DNA of 64,000 bases. Source: Flavobacteriales bacterium. Its GTDB lineage: Bacteria; Bacteroidota; Bacteroidia; JACJYZ01. The notes below the pieces were generated by a model. That model was given only the letters and a program-made list of their open reading frames with translations, had not been told where the DNA came from and made no database searches. Below are positions 10,822-19,814 of this stretch, in pieces. Positions within the stretch are counted from its first letter, which is position 1, and each line of letters opens with the position of its first letter. The position numbers and the translations under genes were made by a program. The stretch is taken from the NCBI GenBank assembly GCA_020635855.1, contig JACJYZ010000002.1, positions 79,937 through 143,936 of the forward strand, written 5' to 3'.

Positions 10822-10836
10822 CGATCAGGAAGTTTT

Positions 10837-10911
10837 TTGAACCACATAGGCACATAACACACATAGGCTATGTGTTTTTTCTATTGTGACCTATGTGTCT
10901 ATGTGGTTCAA
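10837..10911. repeat. palindromic intergenic element (TGAACCACATAGGCACA family), copy 1
   Basis: Arms tgaaccacatag (10838-10849) and ctatgtggttca (10899-10910). Internal CACATAG/CTATGTG units. Contains ctattgtgac, which is the reverse complement of the loop in copy 2. Confidence 0.65.
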
Positions 10912-10912
10912 A

Positions 10913-11917
10913 TCAGGAAGCCTTGTCCTTTGCTTTCTGCTCTTTTTCCAGGTCTTCCTCGCCTTCGATCACGGGGCCCATCGCAGAGAACTTCATGATG
11001 CGGTCGTGAATGCGGTCTTCCGGTGCCATGGCATCCAATACGGCCAGGTGTTTCATGATTTCCTTTTTCACGATGGCGATGGCTTCGTCGGGGTGGGTGT
11101 GTGCACCGCCCAGGGGTTCTTTGATGATGCCGTCGATGAGTTTGTTGGACAGCATGTCTTCGGCGGTGAGCTTGAGGGCTTCGGCGGCTTTTTCCTTGAA
11201 GTCCCAGCTGCGCCACAGGATGCTGGAGCATGACTCCGGGGAGATCACGCTGTACCAGGTGTTTTCCATCATCAGCACCTTGTCGCCGATGCCGATGCCG
11301 AGTGCACCTCCGGAGGCGCCTTCACCGATCACGATGCAGATCACGGGCACGCGCAGCTGCGTCATCTCAAGCAGGTTGCGTGCGATGGCTTCGCCTTGTC
11401 CGCGTTCCTCGGCTTCCAGTCCGGGATAGGCGCCCGGGGTATCTATTAAGGTCACGATGGGTTTGTTGAACTTCTCCGCCATTTTCATCAGGCGGAGGGC
11501 CTTGCGGTACCCTTCGGGGTTGGCCATACCAAAGTTACGGTACTGGCGCATCTTGGTGTTGATCCCTTTCTGGTGACCGATGAACATGATGGAGCGCCCT
11601 TCAATGGAAGCGAACCCGCCCACGATGGCTTTGTCGTCTTTCACGGTGCGGTCGCCGTGCAGCTCCAGGAAGCTGCCTTCGTCGGTCATGCCCTGAATAT
11701 ACTTGAGGGTGTAGGGGCGTTCGGGGTGTCTGGACAGCTGCACGCGCTGCCAGGCGGTGAGGTTGCCGTATACCTTCTTGCGTGTCTCGTCGATCTTCTT
11801 GAGCAGCTGATTCTCCGTTTCGGAGGTATCCACGCTTCCTTCGGACTTGACCTCCCGGATCTTGTCCAGTTGGGTCATCAGTTCTTCAATCGGCTTTTCG
11901 AATTCCAGGTATATCAT
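10913..11917 (-). CDS. accA: acetyl-CoA carboxylase carboxyltransferase subunit alpha
   Basis: Full-length collinear match to AccA ([18 protein letters not shown]...[25 protein letters not shown]...). 334 aa. Confidence 0.93.
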
Positions 11918-11992
11918 GATGATGGATGATGGCTAAAGCCCCGCAAGGTACAAAATCCGGTGGGGAAGTGCCAGAGGGGTGAGGGATAGGGG

Positions 11993-12048
11993 GTAAGGGG
12001 GTAAGGAGGTAATGAAGTAAGGAAGTAAGGAAGTAAGGAAGTAAAGGG
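11993..12048. repeat. 8-bp tandem repeat (GTAAGGAA)x~7, partly degenerate
   Basis: gtaagggg gtaaggag gtaatgaa gtaaggaa gtaaggaa gtaaggaa gtaaaggg. Lies in the divergent intergenic region between accA (-) and the first island gene (+). Confidence 0.7.
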
Positions 12049-12118
12049 TGTATGATGGGGGAGTGAAGGAATTGTTGTAGATTTTGAGACGGGATAACCG
12101 ATTGGCAAGTACTTTCAA

Positions 12119-12685
12119 ATGATGCGACCATTCATCTTTTCACTGACAATTTTACTATTGAACGGTTGTGGGCCTTCTGCCGTTCAGACCAATAACCCAC
12201 GGGATGACACTTTGGCCAATGACAACATACCTGAATCAACCAATAGACGGTATTTGCAGCCTGACAGTCTAATCTCGACTGCTGGTGACTTTAATGGGGA
12301 CAGTCATCAGGATTTGGCAACCGTTGTTCCTCCATCGATGGATAATTTGGGTCACTGCGAAAAATGCATCACTAAAATCGCCTTCTCCGACAGCATAGAC
12401 ACCTTGACAATTCCTTATGAAGCAAATGGTGCAATCATTTTTAATGCGGGTGACTTAGACGGTAACAAGACGGATGAGTTACTTGTAATTCCAGGCTGGT
12501 TTAACAGCTGTCTCGGAACGCAATGGGTCTATACTTACAGGATCAACAAATGGGATACGGTAGCAAGCGGGCAAATCAATCGCTGTATTCCGCAAAACAC
12601 AATCAAAAAAATAAAGAACGGACTGTTTCAAATGACTCAGTATATGGATGGGCAAGACAGCATAACAACAATGAAAATTAAATAG
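12119..12685 (+). CDS. hypothetical lipoprotein with FG-GAP/VCBS-like Gly-Asp motifs
   Basis: Signal plus lipobox (LLLNGCG). GDFNGDSHQDLATV and GDLDGNKTDELLVI motifs. AT-rich coding. Confidence 0.5.
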   Translation: MMRPFIFSLTILLLNGCGPSAVQTNNPRDDTLANDNIPESTNRRYLQPDSLISTAGDFNGDSHQDLATVVPPSMDNLGHCEKCITKIAFSDSIDTLTIPYEANGAIIFNAGDLDGNKTDELLVIPGWFNSCLGTQWVYTYRINKWDTVASGQINRCIPQNTIKKIKNGLFQMTQYMDGQDSITTMKIK

Positions 12686-12739
12686 TAAGATAAACACATT
12701 ACACTTTGAGTCACCATAGATTTGCAACTATTAGTTAGG

Positions 12740-12789
12740 CGTTAGGCGAAGGTTGTACCTTCGTCTTTTTATCCTGTAGCATTCGCTAC
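12740..12789. repeat. about 50-bp post-stop intergenic repeat (family A), copy 1
   Basis: gttaggcgaaggttgtaccttcgtctttttatcctgtagcattcgctac. About 90% identical to 18365-18412. Confidence 0.6.
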
Positions 12790-12860
12790 ATAAGCTGCCC
12801 GTGTAAGAGAACAATTCATACATTACACTCGACTGTATGGCTGACACCCGCTAAACCACC

Positions 12861-13604
12861 ATGACGAAGTTCTTCACATATTGCTTCGACAAATGGTGGA
12901 AACCCATTCTGTTTTCTGGTTTCACCCTCGGGCTTGTTGTAGCAAGTGAATTCATCCAGAACAACATTTTCGGGTGGTTTAGCTTCATGCTTTTCGGGTC
13001 GGGTATGCTCGGACTTGTTATCTCCATCGTATATCAATTGATAAAAAAGCGATGGTTAAAAGCGATCCTGACCGGACTGTTCTTTGGTGGAACCATTGCT
13101 GCATTTGTGGTATACGTCTTATTCTCGTTTTTCTTGGAAACAGTGGACGGTGACAAATGGGCTGACAATTTGAAGATTCCAACGGACATACAACTTGACA
13201 TACCAGTTGACCTGGCGTTAAGAAATCAAAGGCAGGATAGTGTTCCGGCATGGACCAAGTACACAGGAGATTTTCAGCTTTACAATTCGTTTCAGCCAGG
13301 ATTATATGAGTACGACTTCTGGACAGGCAAAATTGAAGCCGGGACAATTTATCTTAAAGCCTTTGAGATTACCCAGGAGTATGCTCTTTCCACAGATTGG
13401 CTCCCTGAACGAAGTGCAGTCAAAATTTACAATCCAACGGACAGTATACTTAAATTTGGTACGACAACACATTTCACCATTTACGAGGGCGATTGGGGTA
13501 AACCGTATGCCGCAAGATTTGAGGTTTGGTTTAAGCCCGATAAAGGTGGACAGGAGCGAAAACTATTCATGGAAAATTATAAGATTGAAGGATGGCAGCG
13601 GTAA
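12861..13604 (+). CDS. hypothetical membrane protein (three predicted N-terminal TM helices plus soluble C-terminal domain)
   Basis: Hydrophobic segments FSGFTLGLVVA, FGWFSFMLFGSGMLGLVISIV and AILTGLFFGGTIAAFVVYVLF. No recognisable motif. Confidence 0.5.
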   Translation: MTKFFTYCFDKWWKPILFSGFTLGLVVASEFIQNNIFGWFSFMLFGSGMLGLVISIVYQLIKKRWLKAILTGLFFGGTIAAFVVYVLFSFFLETVDGDKWADNLKIPTDIQLDIPVDLALRNQRQDSVPAWTKYTGDFQLYNSFQPGLYEYDFWTGKIEAGTIYLKAFEITQEYALSTDWLPERSAVKIYNPTDSILKFGTTTHFTIYEGDWGKPYAARFEVWFKPDKGGQERKLFMENYKIEGWQR

Positions 13605-13658
13605 CGGGTAAGGTTCGCATATTAGGAGCAGGTTGCACATCTGTTTTATCTTTAAATT

Positions 13659-13775
13659 ATGACTGATATAACCCCCAAATGCTGCGACACAATGGCGTAC
13701 CACTCCACCCACCACTGCACGCAGCATACAAGCAAATATGATTGTCCGGATGCTTTAGTTGACAGCAAGAGATGA
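13659..13775 (+). CDS. truncated copy (38 aa) of small Cys/His-rich protein (paralog of 15940-16149)
   Basis: MTDITPKCCDTMAYHSTHHCTQHTSKYDCPDALVDSKR*. About 85% nt identity to the first 100 nt of 15940-16149. Its TGA stop overlaps the ATG of the next gene (ATGA). Confidence 0.5.
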   Translation: MTDITPKCCDTMAYHSTHHCTQHTSKYDCPDALVDSKR

Positions 13776-14593
13776 CAGGAAATTTGGCACAACTTATTGC
13801 ATTGGCAACATACGGCAATGCTTATTTGACGACAGGAAGTTTACCTGACGACTTTTACCCGGCAAACACGACTTTTCAGTTTTGCAGATCAGTGGATTTT
13901 TTGGCGCTCAGGAAAACTTTCTTCTTTTCTAAACCGAAGGAAACCATTGTTGCAGTCACGCCAATAGATTGGTTTAAGATGCTGAAAAAAGACAGCTGCA
14001 AAAAAATTAGACTTTACTTTCAATATTCCAAGGATCAAAGTTTTGCTAAAGACCACAAATTGGCTGGCTTGGTTGGTGGTGGTGGGACGTGGTTAATTGA
14101 GACAATTTTTGACAGCTATTCTGATTATTGGGTCGGGAGATGGGAGGTGAAGGATCCAAATGCACCTGACCATAACATTTGGAAAGTAAGTTATGATTTG
14201 ATAGCACCACACAACAGGACGACTGATATAAAAGTGAATCTGGATGGTGTCAAGAAAAAAATTAGCCAAACATTGACGGAGATTGCTTCCTTCGCTTCTC
14301 AATTAGAAAATCAGTATTGGATGGAGCAGTTTAATAAAGCTAAGGAAGTGCTGTCAAGTGCTAGCCCCAAAGAAAATTATTATCACAAGGATTTAATTGT
14401 TGTCGGCAATTACTCATTGAAGGCACAACAAGTTTTATTTGCCGCGGGCTGTGCTTGGGTTTTTGGTGGTATGGGTTCTTGGAACGACATCGGCTTTGAC
14501 AACAAAGAGGATGAGAATAGATATGATGAACTTTCAGCACAACTTTATGACGACATTAATCAATCAATATTGGCAGTGGTTAACTCATATTGA
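13772..14593 (+). CDS. hypothetical cytosolic protein (no recognisable domain)
   Basis: 273-aa ORF with no signal peptide. Start is coupled by an ATGA overlap to the upstream truncated small ORF. AT-rich. Confidence 0.45.
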   Translation: MTGNLAQLIALATYGNAYLTTGSLPDDFYPANTTFQFCRSVDFLALRKTFFFSKPKETIVAVTPIDWFKMLKKDSCKKIRLYFQYSKDQSFAKDHKLAGLVGGGGTWLIETIFDSYSDYWVGRWEVKDPNAPDHNIWKVSYDLIAPHNRTTDIKVNLDGVKKKISQTLTEIASFASQLENQYWMEQFNKAKEVLSSASPKENYYHKDLIVVGNYSLKAQQVLFAAGCAWVFGGMGSWNDIGFDNKEDENRYDELSAQLYDDINQSILAVVNSY

Positions 14594-14731
14594 CCAAGAC
14601 AGACGTAAGCCAAAGCCCGCACGTTTGTCTCCTTATTTTTTGGAATTTGCCATCCTGCTCCATCCCAACACCCCCCTTTCTTATGCGGTAAAAAGTCCAA
14701 TTAATCACCGCAAATATGCGGTAAAAAAATG

Positions 14732-14739
14732 TATATTTG
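14732..14739 (+). promoter_or_regulatory. Bacteroidetes sigma-A -7 box TATATTTG upstream of the Fic gene
   Basis: Exact TAnnTTTG match 19 nt upstream of the Fic ATG. Two direct repeats TATGCGGTAAAAA (14682-14694, 14715-14727) lie just upstream and may be operator sites. Confidence 0.4.
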
Positions 14740-14757
14740 TCGCATAGCGTTTGAGCA

Positions 14758-15864
14758 ATGGCGAAATATATCTATGAACAAAAGAACTGGACGGCCTTTA
14801 CCTGGCAAGACAAAGCCATCAATGCCGTGTTCGGAGAGGTTCGCCTGATGCAAGGCAAAATCATCGGGCAGATGAACGCCCTCGGTTTTTCTGCCAAGGA
14901 AGAAGCCACGCTGACCGCATTGACATTGGACGTGGTTAAATCATCGGAAATAGAAGGTGAAATGCTCAACTATGACCAGGTGCGTTCGTCCATTGCCAGA
15001 CGCTTGGGCATCAACACCGCCGGACTTGTACCAAGCAGTCGCCACGTAGAAGGCACCGTGGAAATGATGTTGGATGCCACCCAGCGTTTCAACCAGCCTT
15101 TGACCCAGAAACGTTTGTTTGGCTGGCACGCAGCACTCTTCCCCACGGGATACAGCGGTCCGTACAAAATAGAAGTGGGAAAATACCGCACCGGAGAAAT
15201 GCAGGTGGTGTCGGGGGCAATGGGAAAAGAGAAAGTGCATTACCAGGCAGTAAAGCCGGAGCGCGTAAAAACGGAAATGAAAACGTTTCTGGACTGGTTC
15301 AACAAAGACAACAGTTTGGACCCTGTGCTGAAAGCAGCCATCGCTCACTTTTGGTTCATCATCATTCATCCCTTTGATGACGGAAACGGAAGAATCGGAA
15401 GGGCCATCACCGATATGTTGCTGGCCCGGGCAGAAGGCAGCGGAGAACGCTTTTACAGCATGTCAAGTCAGATATTGACCGAGCGAAAACAGTATTACAA
15501 AGTATTGCAGGATGTGCAACACAGCACGGGCGACATTACCGAATGGCTCGATTGGTTTTTGCATTGCCTCAAAAAGGCGATGCTCGCTACCGAAAACACC
15601 ACCCGGAAAGTAATCCGTAAAGCGGAGTTCTGGAAACTGCACGAACACACGCCCATCAATGAACGTCAACGACGAATGCTCAACAAACTGTTTGACGGAT
15701 TCGATGGAAAATTGCAAACATCCAAGTGGGCAAAAATCACCAAAACATCAACAGATACCGCTTTGCGTGACATAAAAGACCTGGTGGCAAAAGGTATCCT
15801 TCAGCCGACAAAAGAAGGTGGGCGAAATGCGAATTATGAACTGGCAGACTTCGAATGGGAATAG
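14758..15864 (+). CDS. Fic/DOC family protein with N-terminal DUF4172 (Fic_N) domain; class II Fic with inhibitory motif
   Basis: Fic active-site motif HPFDDGNGRIGRAI (HxFx[DE]GNGRxxR). N-terminal inhibitory helix motif SSEIEG ([ST]xxxE[GN]). N-terminus MAKYIYEQKNWTAFTW is typical of DUF4172. Confidence 0.85.
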   Translation: MAKYIYEQKNWTAFTWQDKAINAVFGEVRLMQGKIIGQMNALGFSAKEEATLTALTLDVVKSSEIEGEMLNYDQVRSSIARRLGINTAGLVPSSRHVEGTVEMMLDATQRFNQPLTQKRLFGWHAALFPTGYSGPYKIEVGKYRTGEMQVVSGAMGKEKVHYQAVKPERVKTEMKTFLDWFNKDNSLDPVLKAAIAHFWFIIIHPFDDGNGRIGRAITDMLLARAEGSGERFYSMSSQILTERKQYYKVLQDVQHSTGDITEWLDWFLHCLKKAMLATENTTRKVIRKAEFWKLHEHTPINERQRRMLNKLFDGFDGKLQTSKWAKITKTSTDTALRDIKDLVAKGILQPTKEGGRNANYELADFEWE

Positions 15865-15939
15865 TCATGTGACGCAGCAACGAATGATGCGGGGGGGTAT
15901 CTTCGACGAAGATTGCACTCCATACTTATTATATAAATC

Positions 15940-16149
15940 ATGACCGATGCCAACACCAAATGCTGTGACATGATGGCGTACCACTCCACTCACCACTGCA
16001 CGCAGCATGCAAGGAAATATGATTGTCCGGATACCCTGATTGACTATAGCGATAAAACCGGCGATTACAGACTCATCATTCATGACGGAGGCACATCCGG
16101 CATTCGAAATGAATATTGTCCCTGGTGCGGAAGCAGGTTAAAAAAATAA
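15940..16149 (+). CDS. small Cys/His-rich zinc-ribbon-like protein (69 aa), uncharacterised
   Basis: MTDANTKCCDMMAYHSTHHCTQH...CPWCGSRLKK. CC...HHC and CPWC pairs suggest metal binding. Paralogous truncated copy at 13659. Confidence 0.5.
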   Translation: MTDANTKCCDMMAYHSTHHCTQHARKYDCPDTLIDYSDKTGDYRLIIHDGGTSGIRNEYCPWCGSRLKK

Positions 16150-16155
16150 TGGTAA

Positions 16156-16551
16156 GTGGAAATCAACGACCGCGTTATATTGAACACATTTTCCGGTACC
16201 GGTTCACCCGTTCGTAAGGTTGACCCGAAAGAAAATTACCGGAAATTAATCGGTCAGGCCGGCACCATCATAGATAAAAGAGACGATCGTGTTTTGGTTT
16301 TATTCGACTGCGAGGTGGACCTATTCGGACTGGAGAATCATAACCCCGTTAAGAACATCTTGTGGATTTTACGGATTGACCTAAGAAGGATTGGTTCCGA
16401 TATGATGACGCTAACCGACACAGACCTGCTCGCCAGATACAACGGTGGACAAAGGCAGTTCAGGGATATTGAAGTTGAGGATGGCGACTTGCAAAGGACA
16501 GACCTGAAAAATATATCGTTTGATGGTTGTTTCCTGTTTTGTTGGGCGTAG
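16156..16551 (+). CDS. hypothetical protein, C-terminus weakly pentapeptide-repeat-like
   Basis: 131 aa, starting 6 nt after the small ORF stop. C-terminus LLARYNGGQRQFRDIEVEDGDLQRTDLKNISFDGCFL has A(D/N)Lxx-like periodicity and ends abruptly. Confidence 0.4.
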   Translation: MEINDRVILNTFSGTGSPVRKVDPKENYRKLIGQAGTIIDKRDDRVLVLFDCEVDLFGLENHNPVKNILWILRIDLRRIGSDMMTLTDTDLLARYNGGQRQFRDIEVEDGDLQRTDLKNISFDGCFLFCWA

Positions 16552-16621
16552 GTTGTGGTTCGTTTCTTTATCTTGCAGTATGCGATATACGCTTCCTGTT
16601 GTTACATATCAATAAACCCAA

Positions 16622-17371
16622 ATGAAATCAAAATCAATCATTCTTCTATTTGGACTAACGGCATTCTTCTTCGGTTGCGCGGAGAAAAAAGAAGGTGAAC
16701 AGAAGACTACTATGCTTTCAAATTTTGTGAGCATTACGGATAACGAAGACAAAGGAATTAAGGAGATTCTTGCATTCTATGGTGGGCAATGCAAATATGC
16801 CGTTGGTGTTTCAGCTTCAACCGACCAGGGAAAGGAAAAGTATTTTGAGCTTGAAATGAGCCAAAGCGAGATAGTCGAAAAATATGCAAACATGGCTCAA
16901 TTGCCGGCTTCCAATGTGGCATATATATTTTATAAAAACCTGAAGGAAGAAAAGGATCATTATCATGAGATACATACCGTCCTCACATTCAAAGACGGTG
17001 GAGAAATGACGTATACGTATCCCATGGAACAACTCGATCTGGTCGCAGGCAGAATGTCAACGGTGAACAAAATCGTGGAACTGATAAAAACAAATCAGTT
17101 TCAGGAAATCAAACCATTCCTGAACGATACCTCGGCAGCCAAATATGACAAGAACGAACTCGTTGCAAATATGGAAAAGTTGAACCCCCAACTTGGGGAG
17201 GTGAAGGAGTTCTTGCCTTACGGATTCAGGATAACGGAAAAGGAAAATGGCAAAAGGTATTTGCACATTTCAGGTGGGATACTCAGAGAAGTGCAAAACC
17301 ATGAATTCAGTGCTGATTTCGATTTGGACAGACCCAAGGATGAATTGCTCATGATCAGATATTCATTATAA
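16622..17371 (+). CDS. hypothetical lipoprotein
   Basis: MKSKSIILLFGLTAFFFGC lipobox signal. 249 aa. AT-rich. Confidence 0.5.
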   Translation: MKSKSIILLFGLTAFFFGCAEKKEGEQKTTMLSNFVSITDNEDKGIKEILAFYGGQCKYAVGVSASTDQGKEKYFELEMSQSEIVEKYANMAQLPASNVAYIFYKNLKEEKDHYHEIHTVLTFKDGGEMTYTYPMEQLDLVAGRMSTVNKIVELIKTNQFQEIKPFLNDTSAAKYDKNELVANMEKLNPQLGEVKEFLPYGFRITEKENGKRYLHISGGILREVQNHEFSADFDLDRPKDELLMIRYSL

Positions 17372-17407
17372 AAATGTGAGCAAGGAGCGTCGCATCACTT
17401 TTGCAAA

Positions 17408-17917
17408 ATGACCTTCAAACAAAAACTGGCAGCCTACGTCATCGGGTATTTGACCGATAAAGACATTCCTGACATCGGTATAAGTGCACTCTCGGAGGGA
17501 TTGGAAAGTGAAAACCTGACCATCATGGCCGGGCTTAGTGAAAACGAAAACCGCTTTGTGCTTCGCGGCTATTTTACAAAAGCCCTTGAGGATATGCAAT
17601 TGCAGTTACCTGATACCTCCGAGGCGAAGATGACCATCGTTGACTACTATGCAGATGAAATCATCGCCGGAAGATTGGACCCTTATGATGGATATGAGAC
17701 GCTGCAAAGGGCCATTGGATTTGATGATGATAAGGACAGGTACGATTTAGGGGAAGCTTACCGTGACTACATCGTCCTTTGGGAAACGCATACAAACGGA
17801 CTTTGCTTTTATGATAAGTCCAAAACAACAAAAGAGCAATTCATCGTCGATACGAATGAGGCATTGGTGAACGCATTGAAAAGGAGAAAAGCCCGTGTTT
17901 CTGGATTGAAACGTTAA
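17408..17917 (+). CDS. hypothetical acidic cytosolic protein (immunity-protein-like architecture)
   Basis: 169 aa, no signal peptide, acidic and helical. No recognisable motif. Confidence 0.4.
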   Translation: MTFKQKLAAYVIGYLTDKDIPDIGISALSEGLESENLTIMAGLSENENRFVLRGYFTKALEDMQLQLPDTSEAKMTIVDYYADEIIAGRLDPYDGYETLQRAIGFDDDKDRYDLGEAYRDYIVLWETHTNGLCFYDKSKTTKEQFIVDTNEALVNALKRRKARVSGLKR

Positions 17918-17921
17918 AAAA

Positions 17922-18326
17922 ATGAAAGCAAATGGTGTGCTTCTGTTCATGGTTTTCGCATGTGCGCTCATGGCCTGCTGCATAAGTGCGAAAGAAGATT
18001 TCCTGGGCAACAACATGTATCTGTCCGAGTATAACAACGTGGACAGAAGAATACTTTACCAAAAAGAAAGTTGTGCAACAACGGGTACACAAATTGTTCC
18101 AATGACGGTGCTGGAAATTGCCCATGACGCCCACTGGATCATAGCTAAATCCGGAAACAAACGACAACAGAATGATTACAAATATTGGGTGATAAAAAAC
18201 AACTACGATTCAATACCGGATGCAAAAACCGTCGAAGAAAATACAATTGAATTCGACAGTTATGATTTGTTTATAGCCTACTTAAAAGACAACCGGATTC
18301 ATCTGGAGTTGGAAAGATTGGAATGA
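17922..18326 (+). CDS. hypothetical lipoprotein
   Basis: Signal peptide with Cys (MKANGVLLFMVFACALMACC). 134 aa. Confidence 0.45.
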   Translation: MKANGVLLFMVFACALMACCISAKEDFLGNNMYLSEYNNVDRRILYQKESCATTGTQIVPMTVLEIAHDAHWIIAKSGNKRQQNDYKYWVIKNNYDSIPDAKTVEENTIEFDSYDLFIAYLKDNRIHLELERLE

Positions 18327-18364
18327 AATCCAGTTCTCCCTGGTATGCCAAATGGTAAGGCACG

Positions 18365-18412
18365 TTAGGCGTAGGTTGCATCTTCGTCTTTCTATCCTGT
18401 AGCATCCGCTAC
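18365..18412. repeat. about 50-bp post-stop intergenic repeat (family A), copy 2
   Basis: gttaggcgtaggttgcatcttcgtctttctatcctgtagcatccgctac, 38 nt after the 17922-18326 stop codon. Confidence 0.6.
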
Positions 18413-18870
18413 CCATCCTGCTCCATCACACCACACAATACTTCCGGTGTCCGAATTACTTTTCCAAACCACCACCCCACGCGACAAAGCCCAAGCCTGA
18501 CGATGGCGTGCGGATGGGAACGATAGGGTGCGCAGCATAGCGCGATGGTGCTGTGCCGGATGGGACTGTGCAGGGTAAGCCCCGCGTGCCAACATCCGGC
18601 GAAGGGCATCTATCGTTCTTGATTCCTTGCCTGCCGACACGAAGGCCTGTGCAACGGCAGGCAGGGCACCCTTTGAAGAAGTTTGCTTGCCCGTCCGCAG
18701 CGCAGCGTAGGCGGGTTGTTTCTGGTTTGTTGTTTGTAGTTGGGTCAGCATTCAACTGACCGAAACCGAAAAGGGTACAGCGGATAGCGGGACGGCAGTC
18801 CGGTAGAACGATCAGCCATCCGCTACCTATCCTGCTCCATCCATGTCCTAAGGCTACCGCAATGATGTTT

Positions 18871-18929
18871 TGAACCACATAGGCACAGAGGTCACAATAG
18901 AAAATGTACTCTGTGCCTATGTGGTTCAA
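18871..18929. repeat. palindromic intergenic element (TGAACCACATAGGCACA family), copy 2
   Basis: Perfect 20-bp inverted repeat tgaaccacataggcacagag / ctctgtgcctatgtggttca around a 19-nt loop gtcacaatagaaaatgtact. Confidence 0.75.
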
Positions 18930-18998
18930 ACATGGCAAAGCCATTGGTTGCTCCCATCCGCTTCAACAAACACCCATAACCCTTACCTTTACCCACCT

Positions 18999-19814
18999 AT
19001 GCTCGTTTTCCCAAACGCCAAGATCAACATCGGCCTGCGCATTATCCGGCGCCGGCCCGACGGCTACCACGACCTGGAAAGCCTGTTCTGCCCCGTGCCC
19101 TGGGAAGATGCACTGGAAGTGCTTCCCGCCGGACACGCGGTACAGCAGGGCTTCGTGCAAACCGGTCTGCCGCTGCAACCGGGCACCAACCTGGTGGAAA
19201 AAGCCAGGGACCTGCTGGCGAAGGATTTTGACATCCCACCGCTGGGCATTCACCTTCACAAGTGCATTCCATCAGGCGCCGGACTCGGAGGCGGATCCGC
19301 CGATGCGGCCTTCGCCCTGCGCACGATCAATGAGGTGTGCAAGCTCGGACTGGACCGCCGGCAACTGGAGGCTTACGCGGAAAAGCTGGGATCGGATTGT
19401 CCGTTTTTCATCCGCAACCAACCGTGCCGGGTAACCGGCCGGGGTGAGTTCCTGGAAGAGGCGGAGGTGAACCTGGGCGGATGGCATGTGTGCATCGTGT
19501 ACCCGGATGTGCATATCTCCACGGCGGAGGCTTTCGCCGGGGTGAAGCCGCGGGAACATACGGATGGACAGGACCTCATGTCGTGCCTGAAACAACCCGT
19601 GGACACCTGGAAGGATACGGTGGTGAATGATTTCGAGGCATCGGTGTTTCCGGCGCATCCGGTATTGGCGGAGATCAAACGCGGATTGTATGATGCCGGC
19701 GCGGTGTACGCATCCATGAGCGGAAGCGGTTCTGCGGTGTACGGACTGTTCCGGGAAATGCCTGCGGACCGGGAAACGGAATTCCCCGGCATATCCAAAC
19801 GGATGGTGTTGTAA
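18999..19814 (+). CDS. ispE: 4-diphosphocytidyl-2-C-methyl-D-erythritol kinase
   Basis: GHMP-kinase motifs (PNAKINIGLRI...IPSGAGLGGGSADAAFAL). Start chosen at MLVFPNAK (18999). The longer ORF from 18870 runs through the palindromic repeat. Confidence 0.85.
   Translation: MLVFPNAKINIGLRIIRRRPDGYHDLESLFCPVPWEDALEVLPAGHAVQQGFVQTGLPLQPGTNLVEKARDLLAKDFDIPPLGIHLHKCIPSGAGLGGGSADAAFALRTINEVCKLGLDRRQLEAYAEKLGSDCPFFIRNQPCRVTGRGEFLEEAEVNLGGWHVCIVYPDVHISTAEAFAGVKPREHTDGQDLMSCLKQPVDTWKDTVVNDFEASVFPAHPVLAEIKRGLYDAGAVYASMSGSGSAVYGLFREMPADRETEFPGISKRMVL

Follow-up and report, generated by a model that had tools for sequence, protein, structure and literature searches.

A probable leftover 5′ fragment of a second DUF6980 gene in a patchwork accessory island of a Flavobacteriales bacterium

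Introduction

In contact-dependent growth inhibition (CDI) and Rhs toxin loci, orphan cassettes are displaced 3′ ends. Here we analyze a 64,000-nucleotide (nt) stretch of DNA from a Flavobacteriales bacterium (GenBank assembly GCA_020635855.1, contig JACJYZ010000002.1, positions 79,937 to 143,936 of the forward strand; hereafter the window) in which the 5′ part of a small gene of the putatively metal-binding Pfam family DUF6980 occurs twice, once within an intact gene of 69 amino acids (aa) and once as a truncated open reading frame (ORF) of 38 aa. A preliminary description of this DNA had taken the repeated segment for a conserved leader with swapped downstream partners, as in polymorphic toxin/immunity loci. 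We conclude, with a probability of about 0.75, that positions 13659–13763 are what is left of the 5′ end of a second DUF6980 gene, broken off at a recombination junction within an accessory island of mosaic make-up; most likely the repeat marks an ordinary gene remnant and not a cassette-swapping system.

The locus shares with polymorphic toxin loci (CDI cdiA-CT/cdiI, Rhs orphans) a short patch of homology that is present in an intact gene and in a partial copy, with non-homologous sequence after it. In those loci, however, each orphan consists of a 3′ toxin tip with its immunity gene, located 3′ of the gene for a very large secreted protein, whereas here it is the 5′ part of a 69-aa domain that has been left behind, on the upstream side, and we did not see the pattern again in the other genomes that we examined. 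In the island and its immediate surroundings, we found no large secreted toxin ORF with a variable C-terminal domain and immunity gene. In genomic and defence islands, pseudogene fragments at insertion/deletion junctions are likewise partial copies near an intact gene with a sharp breakpoint, and the fragment described here lies beside horizontally acquired single-gene units in a low-GC (guanine plus cytosine) island between housekeeping genes, with a second stranded fragment close by. Unlike such fragments, the remnant is still an open frame whose stop overlaps the next start, and no transposase or integrase was recognized in the flanks.

For the Sofic system of E. coli (EcSofic), a 47-aa antitoxin encoded downstream (AS1) has been reported (PMC12249575). 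Here, too, a small ORF lies directly downstream of a SoFic-type Fic gene, but AS1 has 47 aa as compared to the 69 aa of the DUF6980 protein, and DUF6980 is unlinked to Fic elsewhere. Integron attC cassettes resemble the island in that small genes on the same strand are separated by related hairpin elements, one of which begins with GTTAGGC. They differ in that the elements seen here are terminator-like hairpins followed by a T-run. We rejected an integron origin because there is no integrase among 20 scanned ORFs of the island and its flanks and no matching inverse core was seen upstream by eye.

Results

The repeat and its boundaries

A repeat search of the locus found a direct repeat of 111 nt at 84% identity, made up of 6 nt of upstream sequence plus 35 codons, which is the longest repeat of the surrounding 10 kb. 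The two copies and the ORFs that contain them are:

13653–13763, + strand: repeat copy A, 6 nt upstream plus the first 35 DUF6980 codons, with its breakpoint at about 13763/13764
13659–13775, + strand: truncated 38-aa ORF, a putative pseudogene fragment, DUF6980 residues 1–35 followed by S-K-R and a stop
15934–16044, + strand: repeat copy B, the 5′ part of the intact 69-aa gene
15940–16149, + strand: intact DUF6980 gene, 69 aa, Pfam PF22400, with 12 of 12 invariant positions

Within the repeat, a 60-nt core at 13692–13751 is found again at 15973–16032 with 3 mismatches, and no such match arose in 100 shuffles. Over the 35 shared codons (105 nt), the copies differ at 17 nt and 8 aa. A weaker similarity continues for about 35 nt more upstream of the shared 6 nt, with a score that was reached by 14 of 2000 shuffles. 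When we aligned both loci, as the preliminary description had suggested, we found no convincing similarity between copy A and copy B 3′ of codon 35, which places the breakpoint at about 13763/13764. The ORFs of 38, 273, 69 and 131 aa, the ATGA overlap after the first copy and the 6-nt gap after the second are as that description had given them. Its repeat of 36 codons at about 85% identity stands as a partial duplication (84%), with 35 codons rather than 36 in the conserved part, and the first copy runs on for three codons (S-K-R) before its stop, not two. No 3′ DUF6980 piece was detected anywhere in the window by tblastn.

The region 13600–16200 is 100% identical in four contigs out of three other assemblies, and two shorter contigs, which belong to two further assemblies, match its left part, where the truncated copy lies, at 100% identity. 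Because the identical sequence is present in five other assemblies, the repeat is not an assembly artefact. Scans of the window for tRNAs and Rfam families gave no match; the repeat therefore corresponds to no known RNA element, and no tRNA marks the site of the island.

The repeated segment is half of a domain

We found that the intact 69-aa ORF is a full-length match to Pfam DUF6980 (PF22400; E value 1e-22, 80.7 bits against a cutoff of 27, residues 7–68), and it is a standard member of this family, whose compact Cys/His proteins are numerous and occur across phyla; its size and stand-alone architecture are those usual in Bacteroidota, with no difference noted. Its close relatives are mostly stand-alone proteins of 59–76 aa (two have 101 aa) found across Bacteroidota. 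A DUF6980 profile search of 1.84 billion representatives returned 1201 members, and the best 150 of these 1201 matches cover the domain essentially end to end (approximately positions 5–68) in host proteins of 59–316 aa. Relatives are also carried on plasmids of Bacillota, Actinomycetota and Pseudomonadota, and none were found among the viral contigs searched. A comparison of 42 diverse members gave the invariant positions C8, C9, C20, C29, D31, H48, D49, G50, C60, P61, C63 and G64, and the intact protein keeps all 12 of them, including six Cys and one His.

The truncated 38-aa ORF reaches 28.1 bits against the same model (cutoff 27) and covers only model positions 2–30 of 99. It keeps only C8, C9, C20, C29 and D31 and is without the other 7 of the 12 invariants (H48, D49, G50, C60, P61, C63 and G64), together with the IIHDGG and CPWCG parts of the domain, and the NCBI record does not list it as a gene. 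Because only the first five of the 12 invariants lie in the 38-aa ORF, the 35 codons are the front half of one indivisible DUF6980 domain and not a separate module. A module with variable downstream partners in other genomes, as the preliminary description had envisaged, was not found, an outcome that this description had itself named as refuting its model: a 5′-only DUF6980 copy was present in 0 of 18 other DUF6980 loci, all of which hold the whole domain except for one that is ended by the contig end. These 18 loci were retrieved with a motif located inside the 5′ part.

The small DUF6980 protein has no known function, in agreement with the preliminary description; we found no mention of DUF6980 in the literature, and a PDB sequence search with the DUF6980 profile returned nothing significant (an RpoM zinc-ribbon match had an E value of 0.054). 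The AlphaFold2 (AF2) model, built from a 16-sequence alignment, was too poor to use (predicted local distance difference test, pLDDT, 57).

The gene after the intact copy is a conserved partner

The gene that follows the intact copy begins 6 nt 3′ of the 69-aa ORF, as a 131-aa ORF with a GTG start (16156–16551), in which we recognize two parts:

16156–16395, + strand: conserved 79-aa partner of a DUF6980 subclade, with a GTG start and the N-terminus MEIND..., forming the front of the 131-aa ORF
16402–16551, + strand: putative N-terminal piece of a pentapeptide-repeat gene into which the partner reads through, with weak model matches

The first 79–80 residues of the 131-aa ORF are 52–64% identical to the gene directly after DUF6980 in loci L017, L036 and L002/L018, so that a DUF6980 gene followed by the 79-aa gene is seen in four independent loci including the window. 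The spacing between the two genes is 6 nt in L017 and L036, as it is here, and the genes overlap in L002/L018. Homologues of the partner end at about residue 80, whereas the ORF in the window reads on for 51 extra residues. Residues 90–123 of the ORF match positions 3–36 of the Alr5209/HetL pentapeptide models with E values of 5e-4 and 3e-3, scores that are below the cutoffs. The 131-aa ORF thus looks like a conserved 79-aa gene fused to the stranded 5′ start of a pentapeptide-repeat gene (residues 82–131 of the ORF) whose remainder is missing. The conserved MEIND N-terminus supports GTG 16156 as the start; NCBI starts the ORF at a later ATG (123 aa). A homologue search for the 79-aa partner yielded only one other protein, too few for structure prediction. 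In our reading, the working unit is the intact two-gene module of DUF6980 plus its 79-aa partner.

Away from this subclade partner, the neighbours of full-length DUF6980 genes vary, and include ParDE, HicAB, a PIN-like gene, a leucine-rich-repeat protein, DUF4272, IS5 and a group II intron. Such variety is normal for an accessory gene and is no sign of leader-mediated exchange. Separately, in another DUF6980 subclade (L007, L022, L023 and L025) we observed a conserved 127-aa gene (MEKHVPYEQIRM...) without a Pfam match immediately upstream; it adjoins the DUF6980 start and overlaps it in L007, L023 and L025. Further architectures in the family are a fusion of the DUF6980 domain with a staphylococcal-nuclease domain (P0204, 316 aa) and two partial or complete copies of the domain in one protein (P0144 and P0207).

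The gene after the truncated copy is an autonomous unit

The gene that follows the truncated copy is:

13772–14593, + strand: complete 273-aa gene of an unnamed widespread family, whose ATG overlaps the TGA of the remnant

The TGA of the 38-aa ORF at 13773–13775 overlaps the ATG at 13772 (ATGA). The 273-aa protein has at least 453 homologues, nearly all of 272–275 aa at 100% coverage, and because the length of the homologues is so uniform, ATG 13772 is the true start and the gene is complete. The protein has no match in Pfam, NCBIfam or PADLOC, and its AF2 model (pLDDT 92) has no informative fold match in the PDB. At L008, a homologue lies beside ParDE and a Y1-transposase-like gene, between repeats that resemble repetitive extragenic palindromic (REP) elements; at L014/L015, it lies within an ATP-synthase operon with a PDDEXK gene as its neighbour, and at L014 it sits between inverted repeats of 35–46 nt. 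Homologues are also found at other sites (L029 and L030), and these relatives are bracketed by host-specific repeats. There was no DUF6980 sequence near the 273-aa gene in the six other loci examined, its other homologues have no overlapping upstream ORF (upstream gaps of 51–187 nt), and no homologue was present on the plasmids searched. The 273-aa gene is an autonomous unit that is independent of DUF6980.

The genes downstream of the two copies are non-homologous, as the preliminary description had stated, but they are not swapped partners, since the gene after the full copy is the conserved partner of its subclade. What remains of the recombination that it proposed is a junction with a sharp breakpoint in a mosaic of independently moving genes; the exchange of cassettes driven by a leader and the analogy to polymorphic toxin/immunity loci find no support. 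We regard it as very improbable that the 35-codon segment is a conserved leader by which downstream cassettes are exchanged through recombination. Non-homologous genes do follow the two copies of the segment, full-length DUF6980 genes are found elsewhere among variable small genes, toxin-antitoxin pairs and defence-type genes, and the intergenic repeats of the island could mediate rearrangement. However, the segment is half a domain that stands alone in neither the best 150 of the 1201 representatives nor the 18 loci, the downstream genes are complete with their own starts instead of being in-frame fusions, one of the two supposed partners, the 79-aa gene, is an ancestral neighbour, and the orphans of toxin loci are 3′ ends whereas a 5′ end is stranded here. 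In addition, when the ten island ORFs were compared to Pfam, NCBIfam and PADLOC, we found no toxin, toxin-tip, secretion, Rhs/CDI or Imm family.

Divergence between the copies

Copies A and B are each other's closest relatives, with 84% nt identity as compared to 66% and 72% to the nearest outside sequence. All 8 aa differences between them fall outside 8 positions that are invariant among close relatives, and the ratio of nonsynonymous to synonymous substitution rates (dN/dS) between the copies is about 0.22. Because the differences avoid the invariant positions and dN/dS is about 0.22, most of the divergence would have accumulated while both genes worked. The number of unique nt changes on the A branch as compared to the B branch is 9 vs 2 or 8 vs 4, depending on the outgroup, which is a non-significant trend, and the A-branch changes at fairly conserved positions include M11T, T32A and I34V. 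Faster change on the A branch is consistent with relaxed constraint.

The same data bear on a decidedly unlikely alternative in which selection maintains the 38-aa ORF, be it for a small Cys/His peptide with a role of its own or for an upstream ORF that, by coupling, controls how the 273-aa gene is translated. The frame is open, C8, C9, C20, C29, D31 and the mostly conserved H23 are kept, dN/dS is below 1, and the stop and start overlap exactly as ATGA. An open frame over 35 codons is weak evidence, however, and the appearance of constraint could be mimicked by gene conversion. Moreover, the A branch has more changes at moderately conserved positions (M11T, T32A, I34V), and other homologues of the 273-aa gene, with gaps of 51–187 nt, lack an overlapping upstream ORF.

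The Fic unit between the copies

Between the 273-aa gene and the intact DUF6980 gene lies a further unit:

14683–15864, + strand (coding sequence 14758–15864): Fic unit with its own upstream region, matching Pfam DUF4172 and Fic and PADLOC SoFic

The Fic gene matches PADLOC SoFic with an E value of 4e-49 over profile positions 36–349 of 361, and the active-site motif HxFx(D/E)GNGRxxR is present in the translation as HPFDDGNGRIGR. Against NCBIfam SoFic, it scores 71 bits with a cutoff of 550, and because this is far below the cutoff, the gene is a SoFic relative and not an equivalog. The protein is 86% identical to that of a gene on the Haliscomenobacter hydrossis plasmid pHALHY03, and nt homology to pHALHY03 (79% over 14683–15851) takes in about 75 nt upstream of the Fic gene, with a twice-repeated ATGCGGTAAAAA motif, and ends at the Fic stop codon. 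A Bacteroidetes-type TATATTTG box is located at 14732, upstream of the Fic gene. Judged from these matches, the Fic gene and its control region look like a recent horizontal transfer of a defence-type gene. Copy A and copy B are thus separated by two independently mobile single-gene units, the 273-aa gene and the Fic unit.

This position raises the idea that the intact DUF6980 protein is an antitoxin-like partner of the SoFic-like Fic protein, comparable to AS1 of E. coli Sofic, and that the truncated copy is a relic of such a pair. The 69-aa ORF does lie 75 nt downstream of the SoFic-type gene. In contrast, Fic is upstream of DUF6980 in none of about 20 other loci, the closest Fic homologue (pHALHY03, 86%) has no annotated same-strand gene downstream of it, and DUF6980 has its own conserved 79-aa partner. 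We rejected an AS1-like role, because DUF6980 and Fic do not co-occur in those loci, and consider it extremely improbable.

The two units also bear on the origin of the duplication. It is possible, though unlikely, that integration itself made the repeat: a 273-aa segment, with or without Fic, would have entered through a related DUF6980 5′ anchor, by a Campbell-type single crossover of a circular intermediate or by homology-facilitated illegitimate recombination, and the 16% divergence would then reflect donor and recipient alleles and not age. The order of truncated copy, insert and intact copy is the layout that a single crossover with a 5′ fragment produces, the copies differ as two functional alleles would (dN/dS about 0.22), their identity varies in a mosaic fashion along the repeat, and the 273-aa gene and the Fic unit are both independently mobile. 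Against this, the donor would need a DUF6980 5′ part beside the 273-aa gene, which was seen in 0 of 6 other 273-aa loci; the 273-aa and Fic units differ in GC content (39% vs 49%) and in their relatives, suggesting separate arrivals; and no integrase or plasmid genes were found in the island. Copy A may have arisen in situ as a paralogue that was later truncated, or it may have been made by integration via a homologous anchor.

The island and its intergenic elements

The locus is part of a larger island, of which two features concern us here:

12000–18850, all genes on the + strand: low-GC accessory island of ten genes, with about 42% GC as compared to about 53% in the flanks
14616–14671, + strand: repeat element 3′ of the 273-aa gene, containing the 15-mer CCATCCTGCTCCATC and related to 12740–12798 and 18363–18427

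The island lies between accA (10913–11917, minus strand) and ispE (18870–19814), and its other genes include FG-GAP, DUF3887-like and DUF3997-like predicted lipoproteins. No integrase or other recombinase was found when 20 island and flanking ORFs were scanned, and no plasmid gene was found in the island. Related hairpin or terminator-like elements follow three gene blocks (12740–12798, 14616–14671, 18363–18427 and 18817–18841). The 15-mer CCATCCTGCTCCATC occurs in the window only at 14650, 18413 and 18827, all within the island (3 occurrences vs 0.27 expected), and a terminator-like hairpin is located at 12744–12766. These elements may be scars left by successive insertions, or may mark their boundaries. 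The island is pieced together from single-gene units (the 273-aa gene, the Fic unit and lipoprotein genes) with related terminator-like repeats between them, and it holds at least two stranded gene starts.

Scans for sigma-70 promoters and terminators gave no signal above shuffle expectation, and the Bacteroidetes –7 motif was not enriched. On the + strand, there is no terminator-like site from 13013 to 14445.

Several further repeats were observed in and around the island. Direct repeats of 25 nt at 18403 and 18817 bracket a GC-rich segment of 414 nt. A tandem octamer array, GTAAGGAA (6.5 copies, 90% matches), and an adjacent 7-mer array lie at 11975–12044, in the gap that separates accA from the first gene of the island. 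A palindromic element, TTTGAACCACATAGGCACA ... TGTGCCTATGTGGTTCAAA, occurs in two copies (10836–10912 and 18869–18930), of which one lies about 1 kb to the left of the left edge of the island, on the far side of accA, and the other at the right edge; these may be terminators or REP-like repeats.

Discussion

We propose that copy A stems from a paralogue of the intact gene at 15940–16149 or from an incoming allele closely related to that gene. Illegitimate recombination, by an insertion with deletion or by a plain deletion, would have removed everything after codon 35, presumably including a 79-aa partner of its own, and the junction would have put codon 35 about 8 nt upstream of the start of the unrelated, autonomous 273-aa gene. 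The remnant would be unable to form a working DUF6980 domain, and the ATGA overlap would be a by-product of the junction. The 273-aa gene probably uses the start region of the remnant by translational coupling and would be co-transcribed from the upstream 247-aa gene; co-transcription and coupling are plausible because there is no terminator-like site between the 247-aa and 273-aa genes.

Several observations weigh against this account. The differences between the copies are unevenly spread, with 3 in the central 60 nt and 14 in the flanking 45 nt (Fisher p = 4e-4), and third codon positions differ at 2 of 20 in the center vs 6 of 15 in the flanks (p = 0.05). This unevenness could come from gene conversion by the intact copy or from a mosaic origin. 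Either would blur the dating, and gene conversion would also inflate the selection signal. Neither a stop nor a frameshift interrupts the 35 codons, and with dN/dS below 1, continued selection on the 38-aa peptide is possible. Finally, a search for sister genomes, in which every 90% cluster held a single member and the closest relatives were 67–73% identical and lay in unrelated contexts, found none with an intact copy A or an empty site, and we therefore infer the event itself.

A broader scenario, which we consider quite unlikely, takes up the uneven divergence. The remnant and the intact gene would still exchange sequence by gene conversion, which would account for a near-identical central 60 nt between diverged flanks. 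DUF6980, as a metal-binding protein with six Cys and one His, and its small, possibly SH3-like partner would form an undescribed two-gene defence or accessory-island module that travels with toxin-antitoxin and Fic genes, and the 5′ piece would be kept as the translation start region of a captured 273-aa gene.

If the remnant is what we propose, the 38-aa ORF is to be treated as a pseudogene fragment, which matters little beyond annotation, and the 131-aa ORF as a fusion of the 79-aa gene with a stranded gene start. The region as a whole is best annotated as a mosaic accessory island with a SoFic-like defence gene in it. The analysis has two by-products that may be useful, neither of which makes a long-standing question testable. 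For DUF6980, it gives a defined set of invariant Cys/His positions and a conserved 79-aa partner in one subclade. The second is the 273-aa family, a large and length-invariant family without a Pfam model, whose genes insert between housekeeping genes and whose fold is predicted with confidence but has no solved relative.

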